This document shows, one piece after another, positions 8,531-55,618 of a DNA stretch of 64,000 nucleotides. The notes below the pieces were generated by a model. The model was given only the letters and a program-made list of their open reading frames with translations, did no database searches and was not told the origin of the DNA. The position numbers were made by a program, and so were the translations under genes. Each line of letters begins with the position of its first letter. The stretch's first letter is position 1. Source of the stretch: an uncultured Phycisphaeraceae bacterium (GTDB lineage Bacteria; Planctomycetota; Phycisphaerae; Phycisphaerales; Phycisphaeraceae). The stretch lies in the NCBI GenBank assembly GCA_964426135.1, contig CAYRPN010000018.1, forward strand, positions 65 through 64,064, given 5' to 3'.

Positions 8531-8650
8531 TTGCAAATTGAAAATTGAAAAATGCAAATTGAAAATTGTTAGGACAATGAGTGCCAATCGGGCAGTGGTC
8601 CCGGCAATCCGCAATTTTCAATTTTCACTTTTCACTTTTCAATTTTCAAT
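8531..8650. repeat. Foldback with AT-rich tandem-repeat arms (TTGAAAA/TTGCAAA units vs complement)
   Basis: The left arm at 8531..8568 and the right arm at 8612..8650 are imperfect reverse complements built from 7-8-nt repeats. Confidence 0.75.
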
Positions 8651-8674
8651 ATTCCGAATCTCGACTCATCCCGC

Positions 8675-9490
8675 CTACGGCTTCCCATACGCCGCCGGCG
8701 GCGGGGTCCAGGCGCCCAGGTCGTCCTGGTAGAAGTAGCCGATGCGGGCGGCGGGGTTCCAGGAGTGGATGAAGATGAGCTTGCTGAAATCGACCCACTG
8801 CACGGAGCCGTCGAGGTAAAGCTGATTGCCGCCGGCGGGATAGACCTGGCCGCCGGCCTTGTGTGCGGGCAGGCCGCCGTAGGCACTGGCGCGGCCGCCG
8901 CCCCAGACGCCGTCGATCTTCATGGCGGCGTCGGCGGCGAGAGTCCAGCGTCCGTTGCTCCGCAGCGAGACGGGGCTTCGCGACTTCATCGATCCGACAT
9001 ACGGATTCAGCCAGGTGTCGATCCCGCCCAGATACTGGTAGCCGACGACGAGCTGCGGGTAGCCGACTTCCCACTGGCTTTTGTAGGCGCGGCCGGGACA
9101 GTCCCACAGCGGCGACGCGTCGTAGTGCGTGATGCCGCCGCCCTGATTTTTCTTCGGTCCCACCGCCAGCCCCACCGTCGCCAGTGCGTCGACCCAGTCG
9201 ATGCTCGCATCCCACGAGCGATCGTTGTGCACCGACAGCCCGCCGGGGTTGAAGCATTTCTGCACGCTGCGGCCGCGGGCGATGAACAGCCGGCCGCTGT
9301 TGGCCGTGCCGTACTCAACCGCCGCCTGCCCGATGCCGGACATGTTGGAGGCGCACTTGGAGCGCGTCGCGCTGTCCCGCGCCGTGCGCAGCGAAGGCAA
9401 CAGCAGGCTGATCAGCAGCACGATGATCGCGACGACGACCAGCATCTCCACGAGCGTAAACGCACCGGATTTGCGAGCGAAATGCGACAT
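8675..9490 (-). CDS. Prepilin-type N-terminal cleavage/methylation domain protein (Planctomycete DUF1559-like pseudopilin)
   Basis: Trimmed to the ATG at 9488-9490. The N-terminus MSHFARKSGAFTLVEMLVVVAIIVLLISLLLPSL is the classic type IV pilin-like methylation motif. The ORF's upstream 86 codons run through REP-A. Confidence 0.75.
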   Translation of the reverse strand: MSHFARKSGAFTLVEMLVVVAIIVLLISLLLPSLRTARDSATRSKCASNMSGIGQAAVEYGTANSGRLFIARGRSVQKCFNPGGLSVHNDRSWDASIDWVDALATVGLAVGPKKNQGGGITHYDASPLWDCPGRAYKSQWEVGYPQLVVGYQYLGGIDTWLNPYVGSMKSRSPVSLRSNGRWTLAADAAMKIDGVWGGGRASAYGGLPAHKAGGQVYPAGGNQLYLDGSVQWVDFSKLIFIHSWNPAARIGYFYQDDLGAWTPPPAAYGKP

Positions 9491-9617
9491 GCAGTTGCAG
9501 GGATCAGGCTGAACCGGAGAACCAGGGCCAAACGAATGCTGGCCAGACTGCAACCATGATAGCACGAGGTGGCAAGATCGACGACTGCGAAATGTAAAGG
9601 GAATCCGCCGCTGCGGC

Positions 9618-9753
9618 GTAGGGTGGGCACCGCCCACCATGAACATGGGACGGCACAGAACGCACGAAAAGCCAGATCCGGCGCGGCGAGTGGGCGAACG
9701 AAACCTGCGTCTGGCGGCGCGGGGTTCACCGTGGTGGGCAGTGCCCACCCTAC
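9618..9753. repeat. REP-A palindrome pair (GTAGGGTGGGCAC(C/G)GCCCACC ... GGTGGGCAGTGCCCACCCTAC)
   Basis: Two self-complementary units sit in inverted orientation. The same unit recurs at 15619..15639 and 57271..57337. Confidence 0.85.
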
Positions 9754-9804
9754 GCTCGAATCACAGGTCTGCCGGCCCCCGCGTCTCGGAGTGCCGCGGC
9801 TACG

Positions 9805-10716
9805 TCACGCATCGAACCGGAACGCCCCCAGTTTCTCAATCGCCTTGGCGAGCGCTTGCGTGCCGAGTTTGCCGCCGTCGTGCGTCGCGTCCGCCTTGAC
9901 CGCGCGGAACAGCGATTCCGTCAGCGCCGTGGCGGGCAGCGGCAGCGCCACAGCGCCCGCCGCGTCGTGGACGATGTTCAGATCCTTGAGCACCAGGTCG
10001 ATCATGAAGCCCGGCGCGAAGTTGCCGTCGGCGATCTTGGGCCCAAGCGTGCCCAGTTGCCACGACGCGCCGGCTCCGCCGTTGACCACCTCGATCATTT
10101 TCTTCACATCCAGCCCGCTCTTTTTCGCCAGCGCCATCGCCTCGCACACGCCCAGCAGCGTGACGACGACCGCGACCTGATTGCATGCCTTGCACACCTG
10201 CCCCATGCCGGCGGGGCCCATGTGGCGGATCGTCTTGCCCATCGCGTTAAACAGCGGCAGGCAGCGCTCGAATGTCACCATCTCGCCGCCCACCATGATG
10301 CAGAGCGTGGCGTTGCGGGCGCCGACATCGCCGCCGGAGACCGGGGCATCAAGAAAGCCGATGCGTCTGGACGCCAGTTCCGCGGCGAAGCGCTGCGTCG
10401 CGGCGGGATTGATGGTGGAGTGATCGATGACGACGGTGCCCGGTTGCGCGCCGCCGGGCGAGGCGACGCCGCGCGGGCCGAAGATCACCGCCTCGACATC
10501 CGGCGTGTCGCTGACATTCACGCACACGGCCTCGCTGGCGGCGGCGACCTGGGCGGGTGAGTCGGCGACCGTCGCGCCGAGCTTCGCCAGTTCATCGCAC
10601 TTGCTCGCGGTGCGGTTCCACACCGTCAGCGCGAAGCCCGCCTTGATGAGATTGGCGGCCATGGACCGGCCCATGATGCCAAGGCCGACGTAGCCGACAC
10701 GCGTGATCGGTTGCAT
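9805..10716 (-). CDS. NAD(P)-dependent 3-hydroxyisobutyrate / tartronate-semialdehyde reductase family oxidoreductase
   Basis: ATG start. The Rossmann motif VGYVGLGIMGRSMAANL and ~300 aa length match the HIBADH family. Confidence 0.85.
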   Translation of the reverse strand: MQPITRVGYVGLGIMGRSMAANLIKAGFALTVWNRTASKCDELAKLGATVADSPAQVAAASEAVCVNVSDTPDVEAVIFGPRGVASPGGAQPGTVVIDHSTINPAATQRFAAELASRRIGFLDAPVSGGDVGARNATLCIMVGGEMVTFERCLPLFNAMGKTIRHMGPAGMGQVCKACNQVAVVVTLLGVCEAMALAKKSGLDVKKMIEVVNGGAGASWQLGTLGPKIADGNFAPGFMIDLVLKDLNIVHDAAGAVALPLPATALTESLFRAVKADATHDGGKLGTQALAKAIEKLGAFRFDA

Positions 10717-10734
10717 GGAGTGCTCGGGGGAAAA

Positions 10735-11010
10735 GGGTTTAGGGTTTAGGGTTTAGGGTCTAGGGTGTAGGGATTGCGGGATTCGCTTGCGCGCATGGCC
10801 TGTCGGTGTCAGACCAAACAAGTCAAAATAGCGAATGCAAAATGCAAAATGCAAAAGTCAGAGCAAAGCCACAACGCAACGTTGTCTGACTTTTGCATTT
10901 TGCATTTTGCATTGACTATTCCGACTTCCTCCGGATCGCCACGCTCAGGACAAAAGGCGACGATCAGAAAACCCCGCACCCTACACCCTACACCCTAAAC
11001 CCTAAACCCT
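10735..11010. repeat. Nested foldback: outer (TTTAGGG)n-like arms, inner (AATGCAA)n hairpin
   Basis: The outer G-strand at 10735..10772 (GGGTTTAGGGTTTAGGGTTTAGGGTCTAGGGTGTAGGG) pairs with the C-strand at 10977..11010. The inner hairpin arms are at 10833..10863 and 10886..10914. Confidence 0.85.
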
Positions 11011-12137
11011 CAGAACCTCACCCGCACGCCGAACGTCAGCGCCCCGAACGCATGCGTGCCGTTCTGGCCTTCGAACTGTCGGCTGAGCACGGTCTGCGAA
11101 TAGGTCGCGTGCAGGTCGAAGCAATCCGCCCGCCACGCGATGCCGATGCCCGCCTGCGCTTCGCCGACGAAAGTTTCCGCCTCGGCGCCGCGGCTTTTTT
11201 CGAAGTTGCTGCCTTCGATGAACATGTCGTGCTCGACGATCCGCCCACCGATCCGCGCGAAGCCATACACCGTCAGCGCCCCTGGCTGGCCAAAACCATT
11301 GGCGGTCAGGTCGGCGATGCGGCTGGGGCCGAAGTCGTCCGGCAAGTTCCAGCCGACGCGCACCAGCGCACCGCCTTCCAGATGCCGCTGCGCCAAACCC
11401 AGCGCCAGGCCCACCTGCGGAATCACCTGGAATTGCAGGGGATTGGCAGCACTTTCGCCGGCGGGCGTCGCCATTGGCGCAGGCGCGACGAAGCCCTGGC
11501 CGGTCCATGTCGGATACGCGGGCTTGTCGCCGAACTTCCATTTCTTGCGGAAGTAAAACTGGATCACCGGCTCGTCGCCCAACTGCGTGTCCCAGCCCTG
11601 CGGGTCCGGCTCATCGAAAAAATCATGCACGCCCGCCTGGATGTCGTCGGCGTACGACGATGGGCCGACCACGCCGGCGTTCACCTCGACATGGTCGAGC
11701 GTGTCCGCATTGGATCGCTCCCAGAAACCAGCGAGATACAGGTAGCCGGAGTAGGGATGATCGTTCAGCGGCGGATTGGCCTGCGTGATGTCGTTGGCGG
11801 TGTTGATGTGATGGCCCAGCGCGATGCCGAAGGCGCGGTGGCCGGCGGTGAAATCATCGAACGCCGGCAGGAGGTCGATCAGCTGCGCCGGCTCGGTGTC
11901 GCGCAGCGTGAAGCTGGCGACGAAGCCGTTGGTGTAGTAGCGATCGGTGTTGTGGTTGGGCTTGAGCACGGTGCCGTCGTTTTCCCAGTGCAGCGTGAGC
12001 AGCCAGAGCGTGTTCTCCGGCTTCTTCGATGCGACAGCCGGCGCGACATCCTCGGCCGCGGCGACGCCTGAAAGCAGCAACGTGACCATTCCGATTTGTT
12101 TCAGCACAGCAGCACCTCCAGATTCCCGGCGAAGCAT
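11010..12137 (-). CDS. Outer-membrane LpxR/DUF2219-like protein (putative lipid A deacylase family)
   Basis: Signal peptide. WENDGTV..NTDRYYTNGF resembles the END..DR.YT.G N-terminal signature I associate with DUF2219. The C-terminus ..FGVRVRF ends in Phe, as beta-barrel OMPs do. An alternative ATG lies at 12089. Confidence 0.5.
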   Translation of the reverse strand: MLRRESGGAAVLKQIGMVTLLLSGVAAAEDVAPAVASKKPENTLWLLTLHWENDGTVLKPNHNTDRYYTNGFVASFTLRDTEPAQLIDLLPAFDDFTAGHRAFGIALGHHINTANDITQANPPLNDHPYSGYLYLAGFWERSNADTLDHVEVNAGVVGPSSYADDIQAGVHDFFDEPDPQGWDTQLGDEPVIQFYFRKKWKFGDKPAYPTWTGQGFVAPAPMATPAGESAANPLQFQVIPQVGLALGLAQRHLEGGALVRVGWNLPDDFGPSRIADLTANGFGQPGALTVYGFARIGGRIVEHDMFIEGSNFEKSRGAEAETFVGEAQAGIGIAWRADCFDLHATYSQTVLSRQFEGQNGTHAFGALTFGVRVRF

Positions 12138-13616: not shown

Positions 13617-14019
13617 GCGGGGAAGGAGGCAAGGGGAGGGGAAGGGGGAAGCGGGAAGGAGGTAGAGAAGGTAGAGGAGGTAGAGAATACTCGAACGTGC
13701 GCGGTCGCCGTTTAGCGACGCGGCTTGCCGCGCTTCGGCGCGAGCGAATCAAGCAAATAGTAGACGTTTTCGACGGCAGACATCCGTCGATAGAATTGAA
13801 TCCAGGTGTTCTTCGCACCGATGGCGATGCGCCGATCACGAAGCGCGGCCGGCGAATCGCCGATGTGGGACGACTCGCTCGCCGCCGCAGGCGCGGCAAG
13901 CCGCGTCGCTAAACGGCGAGCCCGCGCATCCGAATATTCTTTAACTTCTTCTCCTCCTTTACCTCCTCTGCCTCCTCTACCTTCTCTACCTCCTCTACCT
14001 CCTTCTCTCCCCTTCCCCC
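13617..14019. repeat. 403-bp foldback / MITE-like element with ~95-bp terminal inverted repeats
   Basis: The left end is (GGTAGAGAA/GGAGG)n..TCGCCGTTTAGCGACGCGGCTTGCCGCG. The right end is its reverse complement, CGCGGCAAGCCGCGTCGCTAAACGGCGA..(CCTCCTCTACC)n. The element fills the divergent amidohydrolase/moaC spacer exactly. Confidence 0.8.
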
Positions 14020-14478: not shown

Positions 14479-14550
14479 CGGTCGGGCCGAAGGCTCGGCG
14501 AAGGCCCACCTGTGGATTTCGGTCGGCGTGAGATTTGAATCGGCGTCGGC

Positions 14551-14677
14551 GTAGGGTGCGTCAAGGCTCGGCGCGGACGCACCGCAGTCGACGGATGCGC
14601 GCCGCAGTCTACGAAGACGCACCGCAGTCGACGGAGACGCAACAAGGTGCGTCCGCGCGGACTTGACGCACCCTACG
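14551..14677. repeat. REP-B palindrome pair (GTAGGGTGCGTCAAGGCTCGGCGCGGACGCACC ... GGTGCGTCCGCGCGGACTTGACGCACCCTAC)
   Basis: Inverted arms with internal CGCAGTCGACGGA direct repeats. A second copy lies at 26934..27020. Confidence 0.85.
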
Positions 14678-14721
14678 GCGAGACCGTGCGACCGTCAGTC
14701 ATCGGCGATTCCACGCTCGCC

Positions 14722-15363
14722 TCACCCTTCCCCTGCGCCATCCAGCTTCAATGCCACAATCACCCGCTCCACTGTTTCCTCGTCGTACCCGCGCCGCGCC
14801 AGCAGGCCCGCCAGCTTCCGGCCCCGGCTCGGCGGCGGCACGCGGCGCAGGCGCACCAGGCGCTGTTTCGCCAGGTGCAGCGCGTCCTCGAAACTGCTGG
14901 ATGCGGAATGCTCGCTGACCAGCTTGTCGATCAGCTTCTTGCCCAGCCCGCGCTCGCGCAGCTTCTGGCGGAGCAGGCGCGGGCCCGCGGACTTGTTGCG
15001 GATCAACTCGTCGATGAGCTGTCCGCCCAGCGCTTCATCATCCACCGCGCCGATGCCGCGAAGGCGCACCAACGCCCGGCCGATCAGTTCATCATCGATG
15101 CCCTCCTCGCGAAGTCGGGCGGTGAGCTGTGCTTCGGAGAGCGGCTTGCGGTTGATGAGCTTCAGGGCCTTCTTCATCGCTCCGTCGAACGCGGCGGCAT
15201 CTTCGACGCGCTGGCTGAGCGTTTCGGTCCATGCCAGATCGAGTTCGAGCCGCAGCGCTTCGACCTGCTGGCGTGAAAGGGTGGCGACGGATTTGCCGTC
15301 GACCTTGATGATGCGTCGGGTGGGATCGCTGCGACTGTGGGAGATGGCGGTAATTCGTTCCAT
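14722..15363 (-). CDS. recX: Regulatory protein RecX
   Basis: Trimmed to the ATG at 15361-15363 (MERITAISHS..). The repeated three-helix modules (..KALKLINRKPLSEAQLTARLREEGIDDELI.., ..GPRLLRQKLRERGL.., ..LLARRGYDEETV..) are typical of RecX. Confidence 0.75.
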   Translation of the reverse strand: MERITAISHSRSDPTRRIIKVDGKSVATLSRQQVEALRLELDLAWTETLSQRVEDAAAFDGAMKKALKLINRKPLSEAQLTARLREEGIDDELIGRALVRLRGIGAVDDEALGGQLIDELIRNKSAGPRLLRQKLRERGLGKKLIDKLVSEHSASSSFEDALHLAKQRLVRLRRVPPPSRGRKLAGLLARRGYDEETVERVIVALKLDGAGEG

Positions 15364-15372
15364 GGAGCGGGG

Positions 15373-15484
15373 CGAGGGACCGAGGGACCGAGGGACGAAG
15401 GGACGGAGGGACGGAGGGACGGAGGGACGGAGGGACGGAGGGACCAAGGGACGGAGGGACCAAGGGACCAAGGGACGGAGGGAC
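15373..15484. repeat. Tandem 9-nt repeat (GGGACNRAG) x ~12
   Basis: Direct reading. It abuts the recX start codon, so the mRNA-sense strand is C/U-rich. Confidence 0.9.
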
Positions 15485-15486: not shown

Positions 15487-15665
15487 GGCAAATGTCTAGT
15501 GTTTAGTGTCTAGTGTCGAATATCTAATCGCGAAGCAATCAAACGTCGCGTGATCGCCATTTGGGATTCGCCATTCAACATTCGATACTCGACATTCGAC
15601 ATTCGACATTTGCCTTTTGGTGGGCAGTGCCCACCCTACACCCTACACCCTAAACCCTAAACCCT
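15487..15665. repeat. Foldback (GGCAAATGTC..tandem TAGTGT/GAATGT units..GACATTTGCC) plus REP-A unit plus (CCCTAAA)n-like tract
   Basis: The foldback arms end at 15487 and 15614. REP-A sits at 15619..15639 and CCCTACACCCTACACCCTAAACCCTAAACCC at 15631..15665. Confidence 0.75.
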
Positions 15666-17905: not shown

Positions 17906-17927
17906 GATTTTGCAGTGGAATCCCGCC

Positions 17928-18150
17928 CTTCGGGCGGGCGCTAAACGGGGGATGATGCGTCGTGCGAAACGGCAGCGCGTGTCGCGCTTCGGGCGGGCGC
18001 TAAACGGGGGATGGCGCGTCGTGCGGAACGGCAGCGCGTGTCGCGCTTCGGGCGGGCGCTAAATGGGGGATGGCGCGTCGTGCGAAACTGGCAGCGCGTA
18101 TTGCGCTGGTTTTGGCGATAACGGGCGGCGCGTGTTGCGCTGGTTTTGGC
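17928..18150. repeat. Tandem repeat: 3 x 59 bp (starts 17928, 17987, 18046), followed by 2 x ~34-bp degenerate units
   Basis: The unit is CTTCGGGCGGGCGCTAAACGGGGGATG(AT)GCGTCGTGCGAAACGGCAGCGCGTGTCGCG. Copies are contiguous, with no unique spacers. Confidence 0.9.
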
Positions 18151-19457: not shown

Positions 19458-22400
19458 TCACGCCAGACCAACCGCCGCGGCGTCGCGGTCGCTGAGCATG
19501 CCTCCGGTCTCGCCTTCGCCGCGATGCTTCACGGTGCCGTCGCGCTTCCAGCTTCGCTCGCATCGCGGCTCGTTGCGAAGATCGATCACCTCGGCGACGC
19601 CGAAGGTCGCTTCGCTGTGGCCGTGACCCTCCGGGGCGCTGGGCTTCATGGCGACAAACTCGAATCGGCTGATGCCGCAGAGATCCGCCAGGTCCACCCG
19701 GCTGAACGCGTCGAGGCACGCATCCGCGCCGGTCACCCGCAGGCCCATGTCCAGCGGGTTGTCCACGCCCTGCGTCTGCCGCGCGGTTTCCAGCGATTTC
19801 ATCCAGGCCGCGCGACCGTCCATCAGGAGCGGCCAAAGCTCGAACACCGGCACGATCATCGGCTGCGGCAACAGCTCGAGATGCACGCTCTGCGCCGCGG
19901 TCACGTTCTTAAGCTCGCGCCCGTGCAGCGACGCCCACGCCTCCTCCGCCGTGTAAGGCAGGATCGGCGCGAACAGGCGAATCACCGCGCTGGCGATTTC
20001 GTACATCGCCGTCTGCGTGCGACGGCGGCGCGGGCTGTCGGGCTTGTCGCAATACAGGCGATCCTTCGTCGCCGCCAGATAAATCGCCGACAGCGTCTCA
20101 TTGCAGAAATGGAAGATGGATTCGCTGACGACGCCGTACTGGAAATGCTCGTAAGCGTGCCGGCACTTGCGGATCAGTTCGTTGAGCTGCTCCATCGCCC
20201 AGGCGTCGATGCTGGTGGCGTCCTCCAAAGCCCAGGCATGGCCATGCCTGGGCTTTTCAAAATCGCCCAGATTGCTCAGCAAGAACCGCATCGTGTTGCG
20301 AACCTTGCGATACTCTTCGCCCGCCAGGTCGAAGTAGCTCTTGTCCACCTTGATGTCGTTGTCCGTGTTCAGCGAGCACACCCACCAGCGACACACATCC
20401 GCGCCGTAGTCCTTGAGCAGCACATCGACTTCCAGCGTGTTGCCCAGCGACTTGCTCATCTTCTTGCCGTCTTTGTCCACCATGAACCCATGCGTGAGCA
20501 CCGTCTTGAACGGCGACCGCCCGGTCACGCCCAGGGCCGGCAGGAGCGAGCACTGGAACCAGCCGCGATGCTGGTCGGAGCCTTCGAGGTAGAGATCGGT
20601 GACGGGGCGCTGCTCTTTGACGGGATCGTGTGCCAGGCCGCGCTGCACCATGACAGCGTTCCAGGATGAGCCGGACTCGAACCAGACATCGAAGATGTCG
20701 GAAGCTTTGCGGAGCGCGGCAAAGCCCAGGCATGGCAATGCCTGGGCTTTGCCTTCGCAGCGCAACCACTGCGGCGCCGCGGGATCATTCGCCGAGTCGT
20801 ACTCCGCAAGCAGGTCTTTCGGCTCCAGTTTGAACCATGCGTCCGATCCATGCTTGCGCACGACATTGGCGACGGCCTGCACGCTGGCTTGCGTGAGCAA
20901 GAACTCGCCGGGTTTTTCGCCAAAGAACGCGGGGATCGGCAGGCCCCAGGCGCGCTGACGCGAGAGGCACCAGTCCGGCCGCGATTCGAGCATGCCGCGC
21001 ATCCGGTTGCGGCCCCATTCGGGGAGGAACTGCACGTCCTTTTCCGTTTCGTGCAGGGCGAGTTGGCGAAGGGTGCGCGATGTTGCGGCGTCCGCGCGGG
21101 GCAAAGCCCCGCGGCTAAACGCGGCAGGGGCGAACGGGGAATCCACGCCCACAAACCACTGCTCCGTCGCCCGGAAAATCACCGGCGTCTTGCTGCGCCA
21201 GTCGTGCGGATAACTGTGCGTGAACTTGTGATCCAGGAGCAGATGCCCGCTGGCGCGCAGCTTCTCCAACACGATGCCGTTGGCGTCCCACACGCTCTTG
21301 CCGCGCAGCCAGGTGGGCGCGGTGTCGTCGAAGGTGCCGTCGGCGAGCACGGGGCAGTAGATCGGCAGCTTTTCGCGCAGGCCGGTCTGGTAGTCCTCCG
21401 TGCCGTGGCCCGGCGCGGTGTGCACGAGGCCGCAGCCGTCTTCGATCGTGACATAGTCGGCGGCCATCACGGTGTAGAGCGCGTCGAGTGTGGCGCCGCC
21501 AGGGCCGGTCCCCTGGCCCTTGGCCCCTGGCCCCTGGCCCTCTTCCACAAACGGATGCACGTACCGCATGCCCACGAGGTTGAAGCCCTCCGTCACGCCG
21601 ACGATCTGCATCGCGTCGTCCTTCATCGACGCGGCAAGCTTGCCCGCCAGTTCCTCCGCGACGACCGCAAGCCTGCCCTTGATCCGCACCAGCGCGTAGC
21701 GATACGACGGATGCACCGCCACGCCCATGTTGGCCGGCAGCGTCCAGGGCGTCGTCGTCCAGATCATGAAATGCACCGGCTCGCTTCGCAGCGGCGAATC
21801 ATCGCCGACGAACTCATCGAACAAACCATCGCGCGACTGCGGCGCGACCTCGAACAGCACGTACACGCTCGTGTCCTCGCGGTCCTCGTATTCCAGTTCC
21901 GCCTCCGCCAGCGCGGTCTGATTCGCGATCGACCAGTGCACTGGTTTGAGCGCGCGATAAACGAGACCTTTGCCCACGAGGTCGGCGAAAACCTCCAGCG
22001 TCGCCGCCTCAAACTCCGGCAACATGGTCAGGTACGGATGCTCGTAATCCGCCAGCGTCAGCAGCCGCTGCATCTGGCCCATCTGCAGCTTGATGAATTT
22101 TTCCGCGTACTTGCGGCAGTCCCGGCGGACGGACATGGCAAAAGGAAGGGCCGAGGGAACAGGGCCGAGGGCCGAGGGGTCGGAGGATTTCGGATTTTGG
22201 ACTTCGGATTGCGGATCGGGCTTGGTGCCTTGCCCCTCGGTCGCTGGGTCGCTGGATCCCTCGGTCCCTTTCCCTTGGCCCTCGGCCCTCGGCCCTTGGC
22301 CCTTTTCTTGCCTTTCCTGCATCACCTTGTGCTCGATGGGCAGGCCGTGACAGTCCCAGCCGGGGATGTAGGGCACGTCGTAGCCGAGCATGGTCTTGCT

Positions 22401-22673: not shown

Positions 22674-22950
22674 GGCGAGAAGTCAGGAGTGAGGAGTGAG
22701 AATCGAGGAGTGAGGCGTAGTCGCCGGCGAGCCGGGCCGTGTCGGCCCGACGAATTTCGTTTGCAACTTCCAAAACGCAACAAGCCCCGCCGCGTGGGCA
22801 GGGCTTGCGAAGGATCGAACCACCATCGCGGAACCCTGCGGCTAGGGCGTGCTGATGATAATGCGAATGGCGGCGGGTTGTTGGGGAAGGCGCGGGAGCA
22901 TTGGTCGAAAGTGTAGGCGCCGTGGAGCATGTTCGCGAGTGCAGACACGG
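22674..22950 (-). promoter_or_regulatory. ileS 5' leader (~275 nt) with internal terminator-like hairpin; possible attenuator/T-box-like element
   Basis: The leader lies between the upstream gene's own terminator (22951..22982) and the ileS ATG. It contains ATTATCATCAGC, GATGGTGGTTCG and a hairpin followed by a U-rich tail. Confidence 0.4.
22768..22807 (-). terminator. Terminator-like hairpin inside the ileS leader
   Basis: On the minus strand, CAAGCCCTGCCCACGCGGCGGGGCTTG is followed by TTGCGTTTTGG, ~105 nt upstream of the ileS start codon. Confidence 0.45.
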
Positions 22951-29741: not shown

Positions 29742-29874
29742 GTTTAGCGACGGGGCTTGCCCCGCTCGTCCCGGCGCGCGATAGGTGTTTCGTCAGGCCC
29801 CGGTCCGCCGCCATCCGGTTCGCTGGCGGTATCCGTCCGTTGTCCAGAGAACGGGGCAAGCCCCGTCGCTAAAC
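29742..29874. repeat. REP-D palindrome pair (GTTTAGCGACGGGGCTTGCCCCG ... CGGGGCAAGCCCCGTCGCTAAAC)
   Basis: Arms at 29742..29764 and 29852..29874. A second pair lies at 31522..31598, and a variant forms part of the 13617..14019 foldback. Confidence 0.85.
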
Positions 29875-29886
29875 GAGTCATGCCTG

Positions 29887-29950
29887 CGTCTCTCCGTCTC
29901 TCCGTCTCTTCGTCTCTTCGTCTCTTCACCCCTCCGTCCCTTCTTCCACT
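29887..29950. repeat. Tandem 8-nt repeat (CGTCTCTY)n immediately 3' of sdhB
   Basis: Direct reading. It is roughly complementary to the GA-rich array 5' of sdhB (30738..30850). Confidence 0.85.
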
Positions 29951-30735
29951 CACTTCCCCATGAAAAACCGCTTGATCGCGTGCACCGTGGTCTGCCTGCC
30001 GATGGCCGCGATGGCTTCGGTCAGCGGGACTTCCTTCGGGCACACCTTGATGCAGTTCTGGGCGTTGCCGCAGTCGGTGATGCCGCCGGCGCCCATGACC
30101 GCGTCGAGGCGTTCGCCCTTGAGCGTGGCGCCGGTTTCGTGCATGTTGAAATAGAGCGCCTGTCCGAGCACCTGGGCGCCGACGAAATCGTTGTCGAGGG
30201 TGAACTGCGGGCAGGCTTCGAGGCAGCAGCCGCAGGTCATGCAGCGCGACAGGCCGTAGCGGAGCTCCTGCGAATCGGGCGATTCGTTGGGGCCGGCGCC
30301 CAGCGAATGCGTGCCGTCGATGGGGACCCAGCCCTTGATGCGGATCAGGTTGTCGAACATGCGCTGACGATCGACCCACAGATCGCGCACGACGGGGAAC
30401 TTGCTCATCGGCTCCAGCACGATCGGGTTGGCCGCGGTGCCGAAGCCGTCGCGCTCCAGTTCATGCACCAGCGTGGAGCAGCTTTGCCGGGCGCGACCGT
30501 TGATCACCATGGTGCACGCGCCGCACACCTCTTCGAGGCAGTTGCAGTCCCAGACCACCGGCGTGGTGCGCTCGCCGTTGACGGTCACCGGATTGCCGGC
30601 GATGGCGAGCAGGCAACTGATGACGTTCGCCTGCGGCCGGCGCGGCACGTCGAACTCCTGCACGTACGGCGAGCCGTCGGGCTTGTCCCGGCGAGTGATG
30701 CGGAAGCGGACGGTATTGGTCGTGGTGGCGGTCAT
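29950..30735 (-). CDS. sdhB: Succinate dehydrogenase / fumarate reductase iron-sulfur subunit
   Basis: ATG start. 2Fe-2S Cys context (..DCNCLEEVCGACTM..), CMTCGCCLEACP and CGNAQNCIKVCP cluster motifs are present. Confidence 0.9.
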   Translation of the reverse strand: MTATTTNTVRFRITRRDKPDGSPYVQEFDVPRRPQANVISCLLAIAGNPVTVNGERTTPVVWDCNCLEEVCGACTMVINGRARQSCSTLVHELERDGFGTAANPIVLEPMSKFPVVRDLWVDRQRMFDNLIRIKGWVPIDGTHSLGAGPNESPDSQELRYGLSRCMTCGCCLEACPQFTLDNDFVGAQVLGQALYFNMHETGATLKGERLDAVMGAGGITDCGNAQNCIKVCPKEVPLTEAIAAIGRQTTVHAIKRFFMGK

Positions 30736-30850: not shown

Positions 30851-30904
30851 TCGGGTTGTCTTGTCGTTTAGCGCGGGCCCGAAGGGCCCGGCTCGCCGCG
30901 TCCA

Positions 30905-31598: not shown

Positions 31599-31609
31599 AT
31601 CGCAAGCGT

Positions 31610-33613: not shown

Positions 33614-33637
33614 TTTGACGACACTCAAAAAGCCCGA

Positions 33638-33759: not shown

Positions 33760-33769
33760 TCCGGTTTGA

Positions 33770-34597: not shown

Positions 34598-34640
34598 GGG
34601 GGCCTCGTGGGGATGGCGAAGGATGAAGTCGGGGGTTGTG

Positions 34641-35031
34641 GAATGCCGAATGTCGAATGTCGAATGTCTAATGTCGAATGTCTAATGAATGACGAATGCC
34701 CCAATGTCGAATGACGAATGACGGAATATTCGACGAACGTCCATTCTTGTATCGCAACTCATCGATGGCAGCGGAAACGCCACCGACCTCAACTCCGTCA
34801 TTTGGCATTCGACATTGACCCATTCGTCATTTATCAGGGAACTCTGAATATCCCACGAGGATCGCGCGCCAAGGCGCAAAGCACGCAAAGAGGGAGGCGT
34901 TTCTTTGCGAGCTTTGCGCCTTGGCGCGAGACTGCTTTGGTTTTTCAGAAGTCCCATTAGACATTCCGTCATTCGTCATTGGGTTTTCGTCATTCGTCAT
35001 TCATTCGTCATTTTGATTTCGTCATTTGTCA
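34641..35031. repeat. Compound foldback: (GAATGTC/GAATGAC)n arms vs (GTCATTC)n arms with a central 65-nt hairpin
   Basis: The left array is at 34641..34725. Right arrays are at 34795..34830 and 34955..35031. The central palindrome at 34864..34928 reads CGCGCCAAGGCGCAAAGC..GCTTTGCGCCTTGGCGCG. Confidence 0.8.
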
Positions 35032-35042
35032 TTGCGCCGCGA

Positions 35043-35601: not shown

Positions 35602-35742
35602 TTTAGCCGGCGGGCTTGCCCGCCGTGGGCGCTCGTTCGAGCTTCTTCGCGAGTATTGAACCAGTTGTTCGAAGAGGCGACGAGGGAGAACTGGATGCAA
35701 GCGTTTGCCGACGGTTCGCGGCGGGCAAGCCCGCCGGCTAAA
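35602..35742. repeat. REP-E palindrome pair
   Basis: Same arms as at 28511..28650. Confidence 0.85.
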
Positions 35743-35744
35743 TG

Positions 35745-35835
35745 GTTCAATCTCTTCGTCTCTCCTTCTCTCCGTCTCTCCTTCTCTCCGTCTCTCCTTC
35801 TCTCCGTCTCTCCGTCTCTTCCTCCTTCCCTTCCC
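35745..35835. repeat. Tandem CU-rich repeats (CTCTCCGT/CTCCTT units) in the hisI leader
   Basis: Direct reading. It is followed by TATAAT (35841..35846) and the hisI ATG at 35870. Confidence 0.85.
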
Positions 35836-35869
35836 TCACTTATAATCCGCGCCCCCTGGAGCACCCCCC

Positions 35870-38177: not shown

Positions 38178-38395
38178 GGGCGCACCCTCGTCTTGGTAAG
38201 TCCCCGTCTGACTGTATCGTCGCAATGGTCTGTACGGATTAGGCAACATGGGAGGTCAGTCGATCCTTCTGGCCCCGGGACGGTGCCTTCTTCAGGACGG
38301 GTGTCGGCACAAGTCAGTCGCACAGCGCGATTGTCACAGCGTTTCGACCTTAAGGATCGTGACCGAAATAACCTCCCGACTTGGCCGTTTCCGAT

Positions 38396-38508
38396 TCCCC
38401 TCCCTCCTAGGGAGGGGTTAGGGGAGGGTCGGGCGCACTGCATGATTGTGCATGAAATCAGGCTGTTTGCCCGACCCTCCCCCTGCCCCTCCCTAAAAGG
38501 GAGGGGAG
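38396..38508. repeat. REP-F palindromic element, copy 2 (inverted relative to 1081..1193)
   Basis: The reverse complement matches copy 1 except for the central ~25 nt. Confidence 0.8.
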
Positions 38509-38634
38509 TCCGAACCTTGCGAATCGGGAAGTTGTTTCGCTCCGATTCCTAAGCAATGACGGCATGAATGAGACAGGCCCCGGTCGCACGAACCGGGGCC
38601 TGTTCACTCTTGGTCTGTCTCCTCGGCGTGCAGG

Positions 38635-42430: not shown

Positions 42431-42529
42431 ACCGGGAAGACCAAAGAAGCCGAAAAGGGGAAGCCGGAAGACGAAGACGAAAAGGGGACATTCTTGAACG
42501 CCATTCGGTTATCTGGGTAGCTGATTGAC

Positions 42530-43207
42530 TCAAGTCCGGTCGACGGGTGTTGGTTTGGAGACGTAGAGGGCTTTCACTGCTGGGGGCCGCGTGGTCACGG
42601 CTTGTTGCATGAGCCGGTAGAAGAGCTTGCCTCGATGCTGCGAGAGGCGGCGATTGAAACGGAAAGAGAACTCGTCCAGGTACGCTTGGAGATGACCGGG
42701 TGTGACCGCTCCTTGATGGGTTCCGCCCAGCCAGCGTTTGAGCAGGGAGATCACCAGATGGACATGGTCGAGTTGCTCACGCGCCGCCGCGACGCCGGTG
42801 GTCTGGACATGCGGATGATGATCGAACCCCGCCGCTTGGAGGTGATCGTCGACCGACAGGCCATCGGTCACCACCTGGGCTCCGGGTTCGACACAATCCC
42901 CAACGAATGATTCGGCGCCAGCCCGGTCGATGGTCTTGACGCAGCGAAAACGAACCCGCCCCAGCCTCTTCTTGGCATCCCCTTCCACCGCCACAAGAAC
43001 CAAGGTCTTGCCCTCTGCTCCACGCCCCCGAGTTCCTTCCTGTTGCCCACCTACATAGGTTTCGTCCACTTCCACTCGCCCGGCCAGACGGTCGCGGCCG
43101 GGGCGGACCATGACGCTGCGGAGTTTCCGCAGCCAACCCCAGGCGGTCTGGTAGCTGCCAAAGCCGTAGGTGTCGCACAGGTTCTTGGCGCTCAGTCCCG
43201 TCTTCTG
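42530..43207 (-). pseudogene. IS1595-family (ISXO2-like DDE) transposase, 5'-truncated
   Basis: ..QKTGLSAKNLCDTYGFGSYQTAWGWLRKLRSVM..VEVDETYVGG..TLVLVAVE.. matches the central and C-terminal IS1595 transposase. The N-terminal Zn-ribbon region is absent. The reading frame continues upstream of the tracked ATG to ~43207, where 27-bp direct repeats begin. Confidence 0.7.
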
Positions 43208-44834: not shown

Positions 44835-48784
<3,950 letters not shown>

Positions 48785-49660: not shown

Positions 49661-50152
49661 TCATTCGTCGGCGCGAAAGCGGATCGTCCCATTTTCCCGC
49701 GCCCAACGTTCGCTAAAGCCAACATGAGAAATCTGATTCTTGCTCTTGTCGAGTTTTCGATCGGCCTCTGCCGCTACGACTTCTGGTTCCAACTCATAAA
49801 CCACTTTAAGTTTCATAGGATCGGATTTGTAAAAGACCGCAAAGTATATTTTCTGGTTTCGGCGCAGTCTTTCAAGCGACTGTTTTCGCTCTGCGGGTGG
49901 ACTGCTATAAACCCTGTCAAGCTGTCCCGTACCACCCTCTTGGCATGATAGGTATTCATAGACCATCTTGCTGTTGGGGTCTCGGGCATCGGGACCGTGT
50001 TTCGACGGCAACAACTCGTGTTTCAGTTGTGTGGCAACGATCAATTCCTTAACAAGTCCAGGCTGCAACAGATTAGGGATGCCTATTCCGCGTGCCAGCG
50101 CTGCTGCCTGTTGAACCAAGTCAATGATTTTGAGATGTGCCTCCCGGCTCAT
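49661..50152 (-). CDS. Candidate type II restriction endonuclease (small, PvuII-like by eye)
   Basis: ATG at 50150-50152 (MSREAHLKII..), overlapping the methyltransferase 3' end by 32 nt, in low-GC DNA. ..GIPNLLQPGLVKELIVATQLKHELLPSKHGPDARD..VYEYLS.. and ..VVYELEPE.. parallel R.PvuII ..[41 protein letters not shown].. and ..IYRLEPK.., recalled from memory. Confidence 0.4.
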   Translation of the reverse strand: MSREAHLKIIDLVQQAAALARGIGIPNLLQPGLVKELIVATQLKHELLPSKHGPDARDPNSKMVYEYLSCQEGGTGQLDRVYSSPPAERKQSLERLRRNQKIYFAVFYKSDPMKLKVVYELEPEVVAAEADRKLDKSKNQISHVGFSERWARENGTIRFRADE

Positions 50153-50945
50153 TGGAAAGCTCCAATAGTGGATGCCAATCTCGCTCTTCAAGCCTCAATT
50201 GACCAAGCTCGACGAAATTCGCATCGAGCTCAAACGCAATGAAATCGCGACCGTGGCGCTTGCAGACAACCGGGCACGTTCCGACCCCCGCGAAAGGATC
50301 CAGAACCAGATCGCCCGGACTGGAACTGGCAAGCACAAGCCGCTCGATCAGACGGATCGGTTTCTGGATCGTGTTCAACGCATCGCGACTGACCAGTTCT
50401 TTGGACTTGTAGGTGAGCTGCTTGATGTCGCCCCATACGTCGCCGGGATTCTTGCCGTCATGATTGAACTTCGTTTTTCCATAGGTGCCGTTGCGCACCG
50501 AAGGAACACGCTCGCAGCGCATGCGATGCTCCAACTCCACCAGTTGCGGCACGCGAATCGCGTCGAGGTTGAAAACGCGAGGGCGCTGTCCCTTGATGAA
50601 ATAGCAAATGATGTCGTGGTTGTTGGTGTAGCTCAACCTGCCCTGCGAAAGTCGGCTGGGTTGGTACCAGACGATTCGGGACCGCAGGTTCAGAAAGGGT
50701 CGATAGTCGATGAAATCAACGCAGTCGTGCTTGCCGAAAAGATAAAGCGCGCCGCCGGGCTTGAGCTTGGATGCGAACCGGCGAATCAACCCCAGGTTGA
50801 ACTGCTGAATGTCGTCGACCTGATCCCAATCATTGGCCGTGACGCCATAGGGTCCGTCGCACACGACGAGATCGACCGATTCGTCATCGATCTGCTCGAT
50901 CAGTTCGAGCGCGTCGCCATGATGGATGGTGTTTCGCTCGATCAT
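50121..50945 (-). CDS. Site-specific DNA methyltransferase, beta-class N4-C/N6-A family
   Basis: ATG start 3 nt after the upstream gene's stop. Motif IV-like DGPYG (..LVVCDGPYGV..) precedes motif I DPFAGVGT, which is the beta-class permutation. ~274 aa, in low-GC DNA. Confidence 0.85.
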   Translation of the reverse strand: MIERNTIHHGDALELIEQIDDESVDLVVCDGPYGVTANDWDQVDDIQQFNLGLIRRFASKLKPGGALYLFGKHDCVDFIDYRPFLNLRSRIVWYQPSRLSQGRLSYTNNHDIICYFIKGQRPRVFNLDAIRVPQLVELEHRMRCERVPSVRNGTYGKTKFNHDGKNPGDVWGDIKQLTYKSKELVSRDALNTIQKPIRLIERLVLASSSPGDLVLDPFAGVGTCPVVCKRHGRDFIAFELDANFVELGQLRLEERDWHPLLELSNEPGGTSQNH

Positions 50946-52724: not shown

Positions 52725-52738
52725 GGTGAAGCGATGAG

Positions 52739-52869
52739 CCGTTAGCCGTTAGCCGACGTCGGAAACTTCCAGACAAACCTGTATCGTCGGCCACAAAAGC
52801 TAACGGCTTATGGCTAACGGCTGTCGGCTTTGTTTCGTAAACACAACCCCCGGCTTCCGCCGGGGGCTG
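52739..52869. repeat. Foldback (GCCGTTAGCCGTTAGCC ... GCTAACGGCTTATGGCTAACGGC) plus a REP-C-like palindrome (AACCCCCGGCTTCCGCCGGGGGCT)
   Basis: Direct reading, between the tetrahaem and cNMP/Fe-S genes. Confidence 0.8.
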
Positions 52870-53892: not shown

Positions 53893-53916
53893 GGTGCGAC
53901 CTCGAAAAGGGGTGAT

Positions 53917-54078
53917 GAGTTCTGAGTTCTCGTTTCTGAGTTCTGAGTTCTGGGTGAGTTCTGCGTGAGTTCTGGGCTCTGGGGTTTGGGTAGGGTGGGT
54001 TGAGGCTTTGCGAAACCCACCACGCGGTCACTTTTGGTTCGCCAATGGTGGGTTTCGCCGAGCCTCAACCCACCCTAC
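53917..54078. repeat. Heptamer array (GAGTTCT x ~8) plus REP-A-like palindrome pair
   Basis: The array is at 53917..53972. GTAGGGTGGGTTGAGGCTTTGCGAAACCCACC (53990..54021) pairs with GGTGGGTTTCGCCGAGCCTCAACCCACCCTAC (54047..54078). Confidence 0.8.
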
Positions 54079-54082
54079 GTCG

Positions 54083-55396
54083 TTACGCATCCAACACGAC
54101 TTTCGTTTTCGGCTGCCCCACGCAGGTGAGGCAGGAGCCCTTGTCCGGGGCAGCGCCCGGCGGGTTAGCGTAACCGACTTCGCCTTCCTTCACCGCGACG
54201 ACACAAGTGCCGCAGTTGCCGGCCCGGCAGCCGGAGTCCAGCGTCACACCGTTCGCCTCGCCCAGTTCCAGCAGCGAGGTGACGGCACCGGTCCACTTGC
54301 AGGTCTTGCCGCTCTTGGCGAATACGACTTCCAGCACCGCCCCGGTCGGCGCTGCTGCAACTTCCGCAGCCGGCGCCGCCGCCTTGTTCACCTTCTTGAC
54401 GCTGGCGGGTCCGAACGCTTCGAAGTGAACGCGCTCATCGGGAACGCCCCATTTTTCCAGGTCGCCCACGATGGATTCCATGAACGGGCCGGGGCCGCAC
54501 ATGTAGTAATCGAAGTTATTGGAGGGCAGCGTTTTCTTGAAGAGCTCGACGCTGACGCGCTCGGCGTGCTGGTAGTCGCGCTCCAGCACGTCGGTCTTGC
54601 CGGGCTTGCTGTAGCACACGTGCAGGTGCAGCTTGTCGTGCTGCTTGGCCAGGGCTTCGATGTGGTCCTTGAAGGGATGCTCGCTGCGGTCGCGCACGCC
54701 CAGGAACCAGTACACATCGCGCTTCAGCGTGCCGTCGGCGGTGAGCAGGTTGATCATCGACAGCACCGGCGTGATGCCGATGCCGCCGCCGATGAGCACG
54801 ATCCCGCCCGGCGTGTTCTCGACATCCAGGAAGAAGTGGCCTCCCGGCGCCTTGCAGTCGAGGATGTCGCCTTCCTTCACGAAGTCGTGGAAGAAATTGG
54901 AAACGAGACCCGGCGGCACTTCCTTGTCCTTCGGAGCCGGCACGCGCTTGATCGACACGCGGTAGTAGTCGGAGCGCGGGGCGTCCGACAGCGAGTAGCA
55001 GCGGATCGTCGCCTTGTCCTTGCCGGGGATCTGGAGTTGAAAGGTGAGATACTGCCCGGGCTTGAACAGCGGCAACGGCCGGCCGTCGTGAGGCTTCAGA
55101 TAGAAGGAACAGATATCGCCGGGCTCCGGCACCCGCTTGGCGACCTCGAACTTGCGGATGCCGCTCCAACTGGCGACCTGCTGCTCCGCCTTCTTGCGCT
55201 GGGCGCGGGCGGCTTCGATGCGCTCCTCCAGCAGGCGGATCGACAGGTCCTGCTGCCGAGCCTCGCGGCGAGTGCGCGTGAAGTTGCCGAACACCAGCAC
55301 CAGCGCCTGCAACAGCACCAGCGCCACCAGGGCCCCGCCTGCCAACATCATGAGACTGTGTGCACTCACAAAAACCCCTGTTCGTCTCGACAACAT
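54083..55396 (-). CDS. Membrane-anchored FNR-type flavoprotein with C-terminal plant-type [2Fe-2S] ferredoxin domain
   Basis: I prefer the ATG at 55394-55396 (the tracked start is a TTG at 55471; further ATGs lie at 55351 and 55348). N-terminal TM (..LAGGALVALVLLQALVLVF..), RCYSLS (FAD), GGGIGITP (NAD(P)H) and the C-terminal ..CRAGNCGTC...C.. are present. Confidence 0.8.
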   Translation of the reverse strand: MLSRRTGVFVSAHSLMMLAGGALVALVLLQALVLVFGNFTRTRREARQQDLSIRLLEERIEAARAQRKKAEQQVASWSGIRKFEVAKRVPEPGDICSFYLKPHDGRPLPLFKPGQYLTFQLQIPGKDKATIRCYSLSDAPRSDYYRVSIKRVPAPKDKEVPPGLVSNFFHDFVKEGDILDCKAPGGHFFLDVENTPGGIVLIGGGIGITPVLSMINLLTADGTLKRDVYWFLGVRDRSEHPFKDHIEALAKQHDKLHLHVCYSKPGKTDVLERDYQHAERVSVELFKKTLPSNNFDYYMCGPGPFMESIVGDLEKWGVPDERVHFEAFGPASVKKVNKAAAPAAEVAAAPTGAVLEVVFAKSGKTCKWTGAVTSLLELGEANGVTLDSGCRAGNCGTCVVAVKEGEVGYANPPGAAPDKGSCLTCVGQPKTKVVLDA

Positions 55397-55500
55397 TTCA
55401 CAACTGGGCAGTTGCGCCGATCTTAACTCACGACCCGCGCCGATGAAAGGCGAATCGATCCGGTCCTTCAATGTCGGCGTTTTCGCCGAGCAAATTCCGT

Positions 55501-55618
55501 CAGCCGTCAGCCGTCAGCCGTCAGTTCCACAGGCTAGCGGTCGGGCCGAGTCCGCGAGGCCCACCCGTGTCTTGAGCGCTGAAGCAGGTGGGCCTCGCGG
55601 ACTCGGCCCGACCGCTAA
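55501..55618. repeat. Heptamer array (CAGCCGT x3) plus 32-nt palindrome pair
   Basis: CTAGCGGTCGGGCCGAGTCCGCGAGGCCCACC (55534..55565) pairs with GGTGGGCCTCGCGGACTCGGCCCGACCGCTAA (55587..55618). Confidence 0.8.

Follow-up and report, generated by a model that had tools for sequence, protein, structure and literature searches.

The closest precedent for the repeats described here is the inverted GGGAATC arrays of Xanthomonas. In X. campestris and X. axonopodis, these heptamer arrays have 2–26 units and about 90% of them are intergenic (Rehm et al. 2015, PMC4692102). Each genome carries 70–75 close convergent pairs, with the G-rich strand of the left array on plus and that of the right array on minus, and the gene associations differ in sister species (PMC4692102). 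Here we analysed a 64,000-nucleotide (nt) stretch of an uncultured Phycisphaeraceae bacterium (contig CAYRPN010000018.1), hereafter the window, whose spacers hold tandem arrays of 7–9-nt units. Several of the arrays are paired as foldbacks, namely inverted repeats with arms made of tandem units.

The window shares with Xanthomonas the paired convergent tandem heptamers, the intergenic placement, the purine-5′/pyrimidine-3′ polarity and the lack of between-species conservation (PMC4692102). However, the Xanthomonas arrays use one G-quadruplex-capable unit (GGGAATC / GGGANTN), whereas the window has at least 15, most of them without G runs. It also differs by its periods of 7, 8 and 9, nesting, some in-frame coding arrays and its phylum. 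We see it as a multi-family version of the Xanthomonas case. An earlier note, made from the letters of this DNA, was aware of no description of the pattern; our literature search likewise found none of such arrays for Planctomycetes, but the paired convergent heptamer arrays had been described in Xanthomonas (PMC4692102).

Repetitive extragenic palindromes (REPs; also REPIN and BIME) with GTAG or CGTC tags are multi-copy short palindromes, often inverted dimers with a larger hairpin fold and occasionally in genes (Di Nocera et al. 2013, PMC3733652). Planctomycetes and Verrucomicrobia are known to have them, and RPE-4 and RPE-6, two Rickettsia palindromic elements (RPEs), are classed as CGTC REPs (PMC3733652). 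The window has genuine GTAG-tagged REPs as separate elements, including one at 15618–15665 that is fused to a heptamer array, but REP arms are unique palindromes rather than tandem arrays, and the array units here lack GTAG or CGTC enrichment. The RPEs, as Ogata et al. reportedly described in 2000, insert in frame into conserved protein genes and add a surface peptide. An in-frame palindromic insertion is likewise found here in the isoleucyl-tRNA synthetase (IleRS) gene, but it has no sequence relationship to the RPEs, whose arms are not tandem arrays.

Intergenic heptamers of cyanobacteria and Beggiatoaceae (STRR, GGGGAYT and TAACTGA) have been suggested to act in translation, and one inverted case is known among 170 sets (MacGregor 2015, PMC4679880; PMC4692102). 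Like ours, they are spacer heptamers oriented to the downstream gene and often end a few bases before its start codon, but they are almost always direct repeats only, each with one or few unit types. In Drosophila, the foldback (FB) transposons carry long terminal inverted repeats that consist of short tandem repeats in variable number. Being eukaryotic and transposase-associated, they offer an analogy of architecture only. The tandem repeats of the archaeal Borgs have independent origins at many sites, both intergenic and in frame within genes (PMC9879509), but are direct rather than inverted, again an architectural analogy only. Heptamer over-representation in some bacterial genomes has been known since 2007, with no accepted mechanism or function (PMC4692102).

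What is new relative to these cases is the many unit families, the nesting, the consistent polarity, the invasion of coding sequence and the presence of fast-turnover copies beside strongly conserved ones. We tentatively read the loci as several families of small non-coding, hairpin-forming foldback repeats, similar to REPs or MITEs (miniature inverted-repeat transposable elements), which would have colonised one Phycisphaerae lineage, been remodelled by slippage and been partly co-opted. We give this reading a probability of roughly 45%. Its complete element would be an inverted repeat with arms of tandem 7–9-nt units, 7 being the commonest.

The gene calls were taken from the 76-kb metagenomic contig ENA ERZ3430527 NODE_131, which includes the window. 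The G+C content is about 63%, and the 47 genes lie mostly on the minus strand. The 38 spacers of at least 40 nt amount to 11.9 kb, or 18.5% of the window. Its proteins are those of the class Phycisphaerae (Planctomycetota); the best GTDB species-representative matches of SdhB are merely 68–70% identical, and a JGI metagenome scan gave no relative above 63% protein identity. The L-numbers below denote loci from other genomes compared with the window.

Tandem arrays were detected by Tandem Repeats Finder, and those with a period of 7–9 and at least 2.8 copies were counted. Such arrays number 24 and occupy 14 of the 38 spacers, compared with 0.05 on average and never more than 1 when these spacers were shuffled 40 times. 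The tandem arrays are thus real and far beyond chance, and the shuffle comparison bears out the earlier note, as does the detection of 6–9-nt arrays at 11 of its 11 named loci. Several further loci had arrays as well. In the 51.2 kb of coding sequence, we found 8 arrays, namely four period-9 codon repeats and four of period 7, the latter all in IleRS. The array-rich lineage as a whole has 55 arrays of period 7, 22 of period 8 and 15 of period 9.

For pairing, each array was aligned locally with the reverse complement of its surroundings, and a score of at least 28 was taken to mark true reverse-complementary arms in the window. Over all loci, an inverted partner within 600 nt exists for 69 of the 242 arrays, versus 6 in a complement-only control. 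In the window, the shared tandem-arm foldback architecture covers about 7 of the 38 spacers. It had been claimed that most intergenic spacers contain a foldback, which is overstated, since arrays occur in 14/38 and tandem-arm foldbacks in 7/38. As many as 24 of the 38 spacers fold far better than their shuffles (z < −3 on at least one strand), and the other well-folding ones hold ordinary palindromes, namely the GTAG-tagged REPs, a family of a GC-rich hairpin plus GCTAAACG, and a 125-nt compound palindrome present twice.

The paired loci are labelled F1 to F8 along the window. The F1 left arm, (ATTGAAA)x5.6 at 8530–8568, lies 74 nt upstream of the RNase PH start and makes a pyrimidine-rich 3′ arm on the minus strand; its right arm, (CAATTTT)x6.1 at 8612–8654, lies 20 nt past the stop codon of the upstream gene, and the partner score is 58. 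F2 is nested. Its outer left arm, (GGGTTTA/GGGTGTA)x5.6 at 10734–10772, is 17 nt from the start codon of a dehydrogenase gene, and its outer right arm, (CACCCTA/AAACCCT)x4.9 at 10977–11010, overlaps the LpxR stop codon. Between them is an inner foldback at 10834–10913, (AATGCAA)x3.3 ... (TTTTGCA)x3.3, with its second arm from 10891.

F3 lies in a divergent spacer. Its left arm at 13619–13687 is (GGGGAAG)x6 followed by (AGGTAGAGA)x3, and its right arm, (CCTCCTCTA)x5.7 at 13953–14003, lies 16 nt upstream of the MoaC start; the two pair as 13660/13953 with a score of 53. A long inverted repeat of the GC hairpin plus GCTAAACG family, as read from the letters, is nested in it at 13709–13917. F4 at 15491–15610, (TGTCTAG)x3.6 ... 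(ATTCGAC)x6.4 paired as 15491/15566, is a weak foldback with a score of 33, and its unit is related to that of F7. F8 at 52737–52829, (AGCCGTT)x2.7 ... (GCTAACG)x3.4 paired as 52737/52799, is short and has a score of 28.

F6 and F7 are in the sdh operon. F6 at 33631–33763, in the sdhC-sdhA spacer, has the arms (CACAAAGA)x3 and (CTTTGTGC)x3, paired as 33645/33731. The F7 left arm, (GAATGTC/GAATGAC)x12 at 34637–34727, lies 39 nt upstream of the sdhC start, and its right arm, (CATTCGT)x10.6 at 34962–35033, begins 9 nt after the DUF1844 stop. Nested in F7 is a 123-nt palindromic element at 34832–34954. On the plus strand, F6 contains an antisense open reading frame (ORF) of 27 codons, MTKRTLWRVELIRCFLCAFVSLWFNPV, at about 33677–33763, in a region that including the loop is 98% conserved in the sister lineage; the ORF is probably a by-product of the CTTTGTG units.

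The earlier note placed a complementary array on the far side of each locus. Such an array is found at F1, F2, F3, F6 and F7, weakly at F4 and in short form at F8, but not at 15374, 15632, 35751, 53916 or 55497. These five arrays are solo, as are those at 22677, 29887, 30741 and 61370. An ordinary palindrome adjoins three of the solo arrays (15632, 53916 and 55497). The arrays at 29887 and 30741 had been taken as a pair flanking sdhB, but their score of 23 is matched by 18% of shuffles. The sdhB-enclosing foldback was rejected, the complementarity being no more than what the purine/pyrimidine composition yields.

Several solo arrays abut genes. On the RecX sense strand, the array (GAGGGACG)x14 at 15374–15484 is rich in pyrimidines; its end is 10 nt from the ATG. 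The array (GAGGAGT)x5.6 at 22677–22715, with a pyrimidine-rich sense strand, ends 3 nt before the IleRS ATG and is conserved in L100. Upstream of sdhB, the adjacent arrays (AGAGGTC)x9 and (AGTGAGG)x7 at 30741–30849 form a pyrimidine-rich leader reaching −5 of the ATG. Downstream of it, (CGTCTCTY)x5 at 29887–29943 begins 22 nt after the stop and is a paralogue of (TCTCTCCG)x8.6 at 35751–35834, which lies directly upstream of the HisI promoter's TATAAT box.

In the other solo loci, (TGAGTTC)x5 and (TGAGTTCTGGG)x3 precede a GTAG-tagged inverted repeat at 53916–54078, and (CCGTCAG)x4 precedes an inverted repeat with arms of about 35 nt at 55497–55618. The pyrimidine-rich array (CCTTCTG)x3.9 at 61370–61396 lies 66 nt upstream of a plus-strand gene. 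At 15618–15665, a GTAG-type REP palindrome GGTGGGCAGTGCCCACC is fused to the array (CACCCTA/AAACCCT)x4.9.

The foldbacks typically span their spacers almost from stop to start. The 296-nt spacer of F2 (10717–11012, from lpxR to the next gene) folds as a single nested hairpin of −173.5 kcal/mol (z = −16.3), which starts at the stop codon and finishes 24 nt before the start codon. As the stretch between the outer and inner arms is unmirrored, the inner foldback looks like a separate element in the outer loop. The F6 stem (−60.7 kcal/mol, z = −7.7) begins 8 nt past the sdhC stop and reaches to 23 nt short of the sdhA start. In L083, the foldback at the corresponding spacer leaves 3 nt from the stop codon to the 5′ arm and 7 nt from the 3′ arm to the ATG.

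This geometry suggests how such insertions might be tolerated. A self-pairing foldback in the transcript would loop the spacer out and bring the upstream stop next to the downstream start. An insertion between cistrons or divergent promoters would therefore do little harm and could persist.

The arms are polar. Across all loci, the 5′ arm is purine-rich and the 3′ arm pyrimidine-rich in 26 of 34 tandem-arm foldbacks, with the reverse in 4. A palindrome is identical on both strands, so its insertion orientation cannot cause this polarity. The polarity matches the general base composition of this organism's spacers, as pyrimidines average 57% in the 30 nt before start codons and 45% in the 30 nt after stop codons. 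A Shine-Dalgarno core is present in 25 of the 47 genes and lacking in 22. The solo arrays are mostly pyrimidine-rich on the sense strand of the following gene, and several end 3–10 nt from the start codons of sdhB, ileS and recX, genes without a Shine-Dalgarno core.

We suppose that the purine-5′/pyrimidine-3′ polarity would reflect filtering by gene-expression (translation) signals. The background for such filtering would be the purine-rich segments after stop codons and the pyrimidine-rich, often Shine-Dalgarno-less leaders before start codons.

Composition also bears on the possibility that the arrays are non-B DNA regulators, a role proposed for the GGGAATC repeats of Xanthomonas, in which G-quadruplexes, homopurine triplexes or cruciforms modulate supercoiling or transcription. 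Judged by their letters, (GGGTTTA)n, (GAGGGACG)x14 and (GGGGAAG)n could form G-quadruplexes, and several solo arrays are 83–95% purine on one strand. Some arrays stand directly upstream of core promoters, and the convergent orientation is as in Xanthomonas (PMC4692102). However, most units are neither homopurine nor carry G runs (for example TTGAAAA, AATGCAA, CACAAAG, AATGACG, TGAGTTC and GCCGTTA), published work on intrastrand triplexes did not apply to these units, and such a regulatory role appears very unlikely as the general explanation.

The IleRS foldback F5 (22147–22304, minus strand; paired as 22147/22272), which the earlier note did not list, lies inside coding sequence. It runs in frame as (GGCCRAG)n, a loop with (GGATTTC)x4.6, and (CCCTYGG)n, and lengthens the protein by about 49 residues, which lie between the conserved motifs KVMQE and MSVRRDCRKYA. 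Insertion 2 holds the in-frame array (GGCCAGG)x4.4 (21510–21540, minus strand), which is absent in L100. IleRS residues 121–181 align to residues 109–120 of the solved structure 8c9e, and residues 375–401 to 301–307. Both insertions are missing in most of 12 aligned homologues. At the first insertion site, L099 of the other Phycisphaerae has an 8-mer array of a related unit. The IleRS foldback is an in-frame repeat insertion in an essential conserved gene.

Many IleRS gene calls of Phycisphaerae are truncated (450–700 amino acids, aa) although their contigs measure 0.2–6 Mb (P0003, P0010, P0035, P0037 and P0082). In P0010, P0025 and P0035, the C-terminal portion that aligns looks frameshifted.

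The pattern is lineage-wide in one Phycisphaerae lineage. The closest relatives are L083 and L084 (SdhB 85% and 81% identical), L086/L087, L089–L091 and the sister lineage L100/L101, which was obtained via protein searches, and all have dense paired arrays. Arrays with inverted partners number 0.23–0.74 per kb in the window, L083, L084 and L086 versus about 0.011 per kb elsewhere, the latter in 1.22 Mb from 80 other Phycisphaerae loci/species. The density of the architecture in the relatives L083, L084, L086 and L091 is thus 20–60 times that of the other loci. Among these others, clear isolated cases are L069, L062 and L015.

The conserved gene block hisI <> DUF1844 > sdhC > sdhA > 188-aa gene > sdhB allows orthologous spacers to be compared. 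The sdhC-sdhA spacer has a tandem-arm foldback in 5 of 8 genomes and none in 3. Its units vary by genome: CACAAAG, CGGGTNT, CACCGAGG enclosing CACGAAGG, TTCAGAT and ATTTCGG. The divergent hisI/DUF1844 spacer has a foldback in L083, L084, L086 and L101, lying outside both conserved core promoters. In L101, this is a CACRAAGG foldback (R = A or G) that occupies the position of the window's solo array 35751–35834.

Closely related genomes show the pace of change. The earlier note suggested comparing strains for variation of repeat number, and none was found among seven assemblies of the same population, whose arrays are identical. None was found either between L086 and L087 at 1.6% divergence, where the foldback arms have ordinary substitutions only and an unchanged unit number. 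Whole-unit indels do appear against the sister lineage, whose coding identity to the window is 87–93% (about 90%), with 68–84% at third codon positions. A 705-bp segment with a small gene is present in L087 only (14543–15248 versus 14553 in L086), flanked by the direct repeat ATCGCCCGCG.

These comparisons speak to the possibility of hypermutable contingency loci, at which copy-number change would switch the expression of a neighbouring gene. Arrays do stand immediately upstream of start codons, and the copy number does differ between lineages about 10% divergent. However, the identity among seven independent assemblies and the constancy at 1.6% divergence go against it, and the neighbours are the housekeeping genes sdhB, ileS, recX and hisI, not surface or restriction-modification genes. 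We consider contingency switching highly improbable.

Against the sister lineage, the arrays are remodelled in place by whole-unit gain or loss and homogenisation of neighbours, that is, with slippage-type dynamics. The solo arrays upstream of sdhB show a 21-nt (3-unit) indel relative to L100, with neighbouring units homogenised differently, and F7 shows a 14-nt (2-unit) indel in one arm relative to L101. In L100, a 5′ untranslated region has an array (GATTTGA)x9 grown from what in the window is one local heptamer, GGATTTGAGGG. Local slippage, which the earlier note had suggested, is thus borne out by the L100/L101 comparison.

Elements are also gained, lost or replaced between genomes about 90% identical in coding DNA. 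The spacer cores of hisI/DUF1844, sdhA/188-aa and PEPCK/439-aa are replaced outright against the sister lineage. In the sdhB/264-aa and 471-aa/PEPCK spacers the distal part has likewise been replaced, and in the 264-aa/471-aa spacer an inverted-repeat pair. The promoter-proximal segments are conserved throughout. The 123-nt element inside F7 is missing at the orthologous L101 site, where the alignment has a gap. After PEPCK, L100 has a simple terminator (about 7290–7320) versus about 350 nt of palindromic repeats in the window.

F6 and F7 are conserved copies. Relative to L101, the 156 nt of F6 differ by 2 substitutions and 1 indel (98% identical), and the 283 aligned nt of F7 by 9 mismatches. 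Both mismatch rates are lower than the coding average (about 4 mismatches per 60 nt) and far lower than the third-position rate. The earlier note offered selection for long hairpins as one option, which is supported for some hairpins, as F6 and F7 of the sdh operon are more conserved than the flanking genes. Our reading would place a subset under later purifying selection, comprising F6, F7 and the pyrimidine-rich arrays abutting start codons, most likely as mRNA structure or leader.

Conservation of this kind also raises the alternative that the foldbacks are selected RNA elements of polycistronic mRNAs, which would couple translation from stop to start or stabilise or process transcripts, the sequence drifting while the hairpin is kept. 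The stop-to-start span agrees with it, and so do the recurrence of the sdhC-sdhA foldback in 5/8 genomes with all different units, the conservation of F6 and F7 above neighbouring coding sequence, and the pyrimidine-rich arrays reaching −3 to −10 of Shine-Dalgarno-less start codons. However, in four genomes a foldback also separates divergent promoters and leaves both core promoters outside it, and one is in frame within IleRS. Many are replaced or absent in close relatives, including the sdhC-sdhA foldback in 3/8 genomes.

The function tests bear on the same alternative. No compensatory substitutions between arms were seen in the L086/L087 and L101 comparisons, in which the changes were too few to judge. 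Sense strands do not fold consistently better than antisense ones. Two regions gave 7 and 3 terminator-like sites, where shuffles predict 7.3 and 5.6, so they are not enriched, and canonical intrinsic terminators exist separately, for example at 22983–22951 on the window's minus strand (GAAACCTCTCC-TTCG-GGAGAGGTTTC-TTTTTT). We judge selected RNA elements unlikely to account for the foldbacks as a whole, but a serious rival.

Foldbacks as intrinsic terminators were considered and rejected, as a T run follows only F6 and, among relatives, L032. Promoter-like sites are not enriched in the arms, where AT-rich TTGAAAA arrays mimic −35/−10 hexamers. An Rfam comparison gave one tRNA only in the window and no known RNA family at the repeats.

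Copies of one arm at several sites bear on dispersal versus local origin. The earlier note held that the arm sequences differ between loci, so that simple transposition would not explain them. Many unit types do exist, but four arm types recur at two or more window loci. The arm 10977–11010 is 100% identical to 15632–15665, 15554–15610 resembles F7 (34642–34710), 29854–29958 resembles 35723–35841, and 22678–22710 resembles 30797–30829. The right arm 55580–55618 of an inverted repeat recurs in L100 (100–175) in a non-orthologous spacer.

Recurrence extends to other genomes. L084 has three copies with the common terminus TACCACGAAGGGAC...TTCGTGGTAAACCG, two of them with the same order of two arrays. 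The CACRAAGG unit type is found in at least 6 genomes, with loops not conserved between copies, and AATGACG-type units recur across genomes. Identical or similar arms at separate loci and at non-orthologous sites, together with the 123-nt insertion polymorphism, mean that differing units do not exclude transposition. Clustering of the heptamer units by single linkage at ≤1 mismatch was uninformative, as they chain into one giant cluster.

The opposing explanation is purely locus-autonomous. Slippage would build each array and strand switching or foldback synthesis would add the complementary arm, with no movement between loci. Orthologous spacers holding different units in different genomes agree with it, as do the array grown in place in L100, the whole-unit differences with homogenised neighbours and the 15 or more unit types of the window. 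Mirrored unit order is also expected from it. The order of variant units is mirrored between arms above the unit-shuffled mean in 22 of 30 foldbacks, 3 of them at p ≤ 0.05, and this fits weakly with copying of one arm from the other.

However, a locus-autonomous origin leaves aside the identical or near-identical arms at separate loci, the arm common to non-orthologous spacers of two genomes, the L084 composites with shared termini and array order, the nested 123-nt palindrome in the window but not in L101, and the spread of CACRAAGG over at least 6 genomes. Several dispersed families with local remodelling fit better than a purely locus-autonomous origin, which we regard as improbable but a serious rival. 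The strand-switch synthesis proposed by the earlier note keeps the weak mirrored order in its favour, but as part of a purely local origin it fits less well. In the dispersed-family reading, the second arm may arise as an inverted copy of the first via intrastrand template switching; alternatively, the element may spread already as a palindrome.

Some observations weigh against dispersed and partly co-opted families. For the foldbacks, we could demonstrate neither a transposase nor a target-site duplication nor defined element ends, and the precomputed Pfam lists for the window genes contain no RAYT/Y1 transposase domain. The CATT sequences flanking the 123-nt insert are ambiguous, both being already in the empty L101 site. 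By MITE criteria, inverted arms are present and four arm types have 2–3 copies each in 64 kb, but most unit types are found once only.

As to co-option, the foldbacks of L086/L087 are not conserved above average, with 14 differences in 665 nt versus 1.4% overall. The F6 loop is conserved as strongly as its stem, so a stem-only role does not account for it. Folding of the mRNA strand has no consistent advantage over the antisense, so G-U pairs give no support for RNA-level selection.

A bolder reading is that a dedicated mechanism writes 7–9-nt units plus an inverted copy at transcription-unit boundaries, and that the foldbacks serve as "structural introns" of operon mRNAs, self-folding spacers that hold the stop codon next to the start codon. 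The writer may be an enzyme, hairpin-primed or of the HUH type, or a bacterial equivalent of the eukaryotic foldback elements. We find this distinctly unlikely. If true, coupled translation would survive insertions of hundreds of bases, and some spacers would be essential and conserved, like F6.

The window holds other repeats. GTAG-tagged REP palindromes (GTAGGGTGGGCAnnGCCCACC) are at 9618–9640, 9733–9755, 15618–15634 and 57313–57345, some as inverted dimers. The REP at 15618 is fused to a (GGGTKTA)n array, the unit of which repeats the GTAG head of the REP. This (GTAGGGT)n next to a GTAG REP prompted the idea that arrays are amplified REP tags. It was dropped as a general rule, as GTAG occurs in 2/62 units and CGTC in 8/62, no more than other tetramers.

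The GC-rich hairpin plus GCTAAACG family is at 13709/13892, 28508/28621, 29742/29849, 31500–31600, 30860–30900, 35600/35713 and 17924–18107, and also in L083, L084, L085 and L090. It appears as single, sense-oriented copies downstream of genes or as long inverted pairs, and in one case forms a 59-mer tandem array; the window and L100 agree in it at nearly 100%. The family might be a terminator specific to the lineage, a processing signal or a REP type. The 125-nt compound palindrome consists of three hairpins; its two copies (1071–1198 and 38386–38512) are 92.6% identical, and no obvious target-site duplication is seen at either.

Other features lie in or near genes. A 57-nt tandem repeat with a GCTAAACGG motif (45902–46039) inside a 1317-aa ORF is 97% similar to the inverted-repeat arms 7551–7734 in the spacer 7417–7747, and may be a further spacer repeat inside coding sequence. 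The same ORF has a hexamer array (CGGCGT)x29 at 46521–46693, which is an in-frame low-complexity coding repeat distinct from the 7–8-nt arrays. The sole transposase-like gene of the window is a 193-aa IS1595-family fragment (42530–43111), and a GAAGAC-type array (42434–42488) abuts the 3′ end of the transposase gene. A restriction-modification pair at 49661–50945 comprises a PvuII-like endonuclease and an N6/N4 methyltransferase.

The arrays have a practical consequence. Three independent short-read (Logan) contigs, L093–L095, end exactly at the F2 outer arm at window position 11006, which indicates that arrays fragment assemblies of this lineage. In practice, the arrays break short-read assemblies and inflate intergenic DNA to 18.5% of the window.

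This lineage is a natural experiment, with many unit types within one genome. Mobile elements of this kind would make a bacterial analogue of the foldback transposons, whereas selected ones would show how long operon spacers can become harmless or useful.

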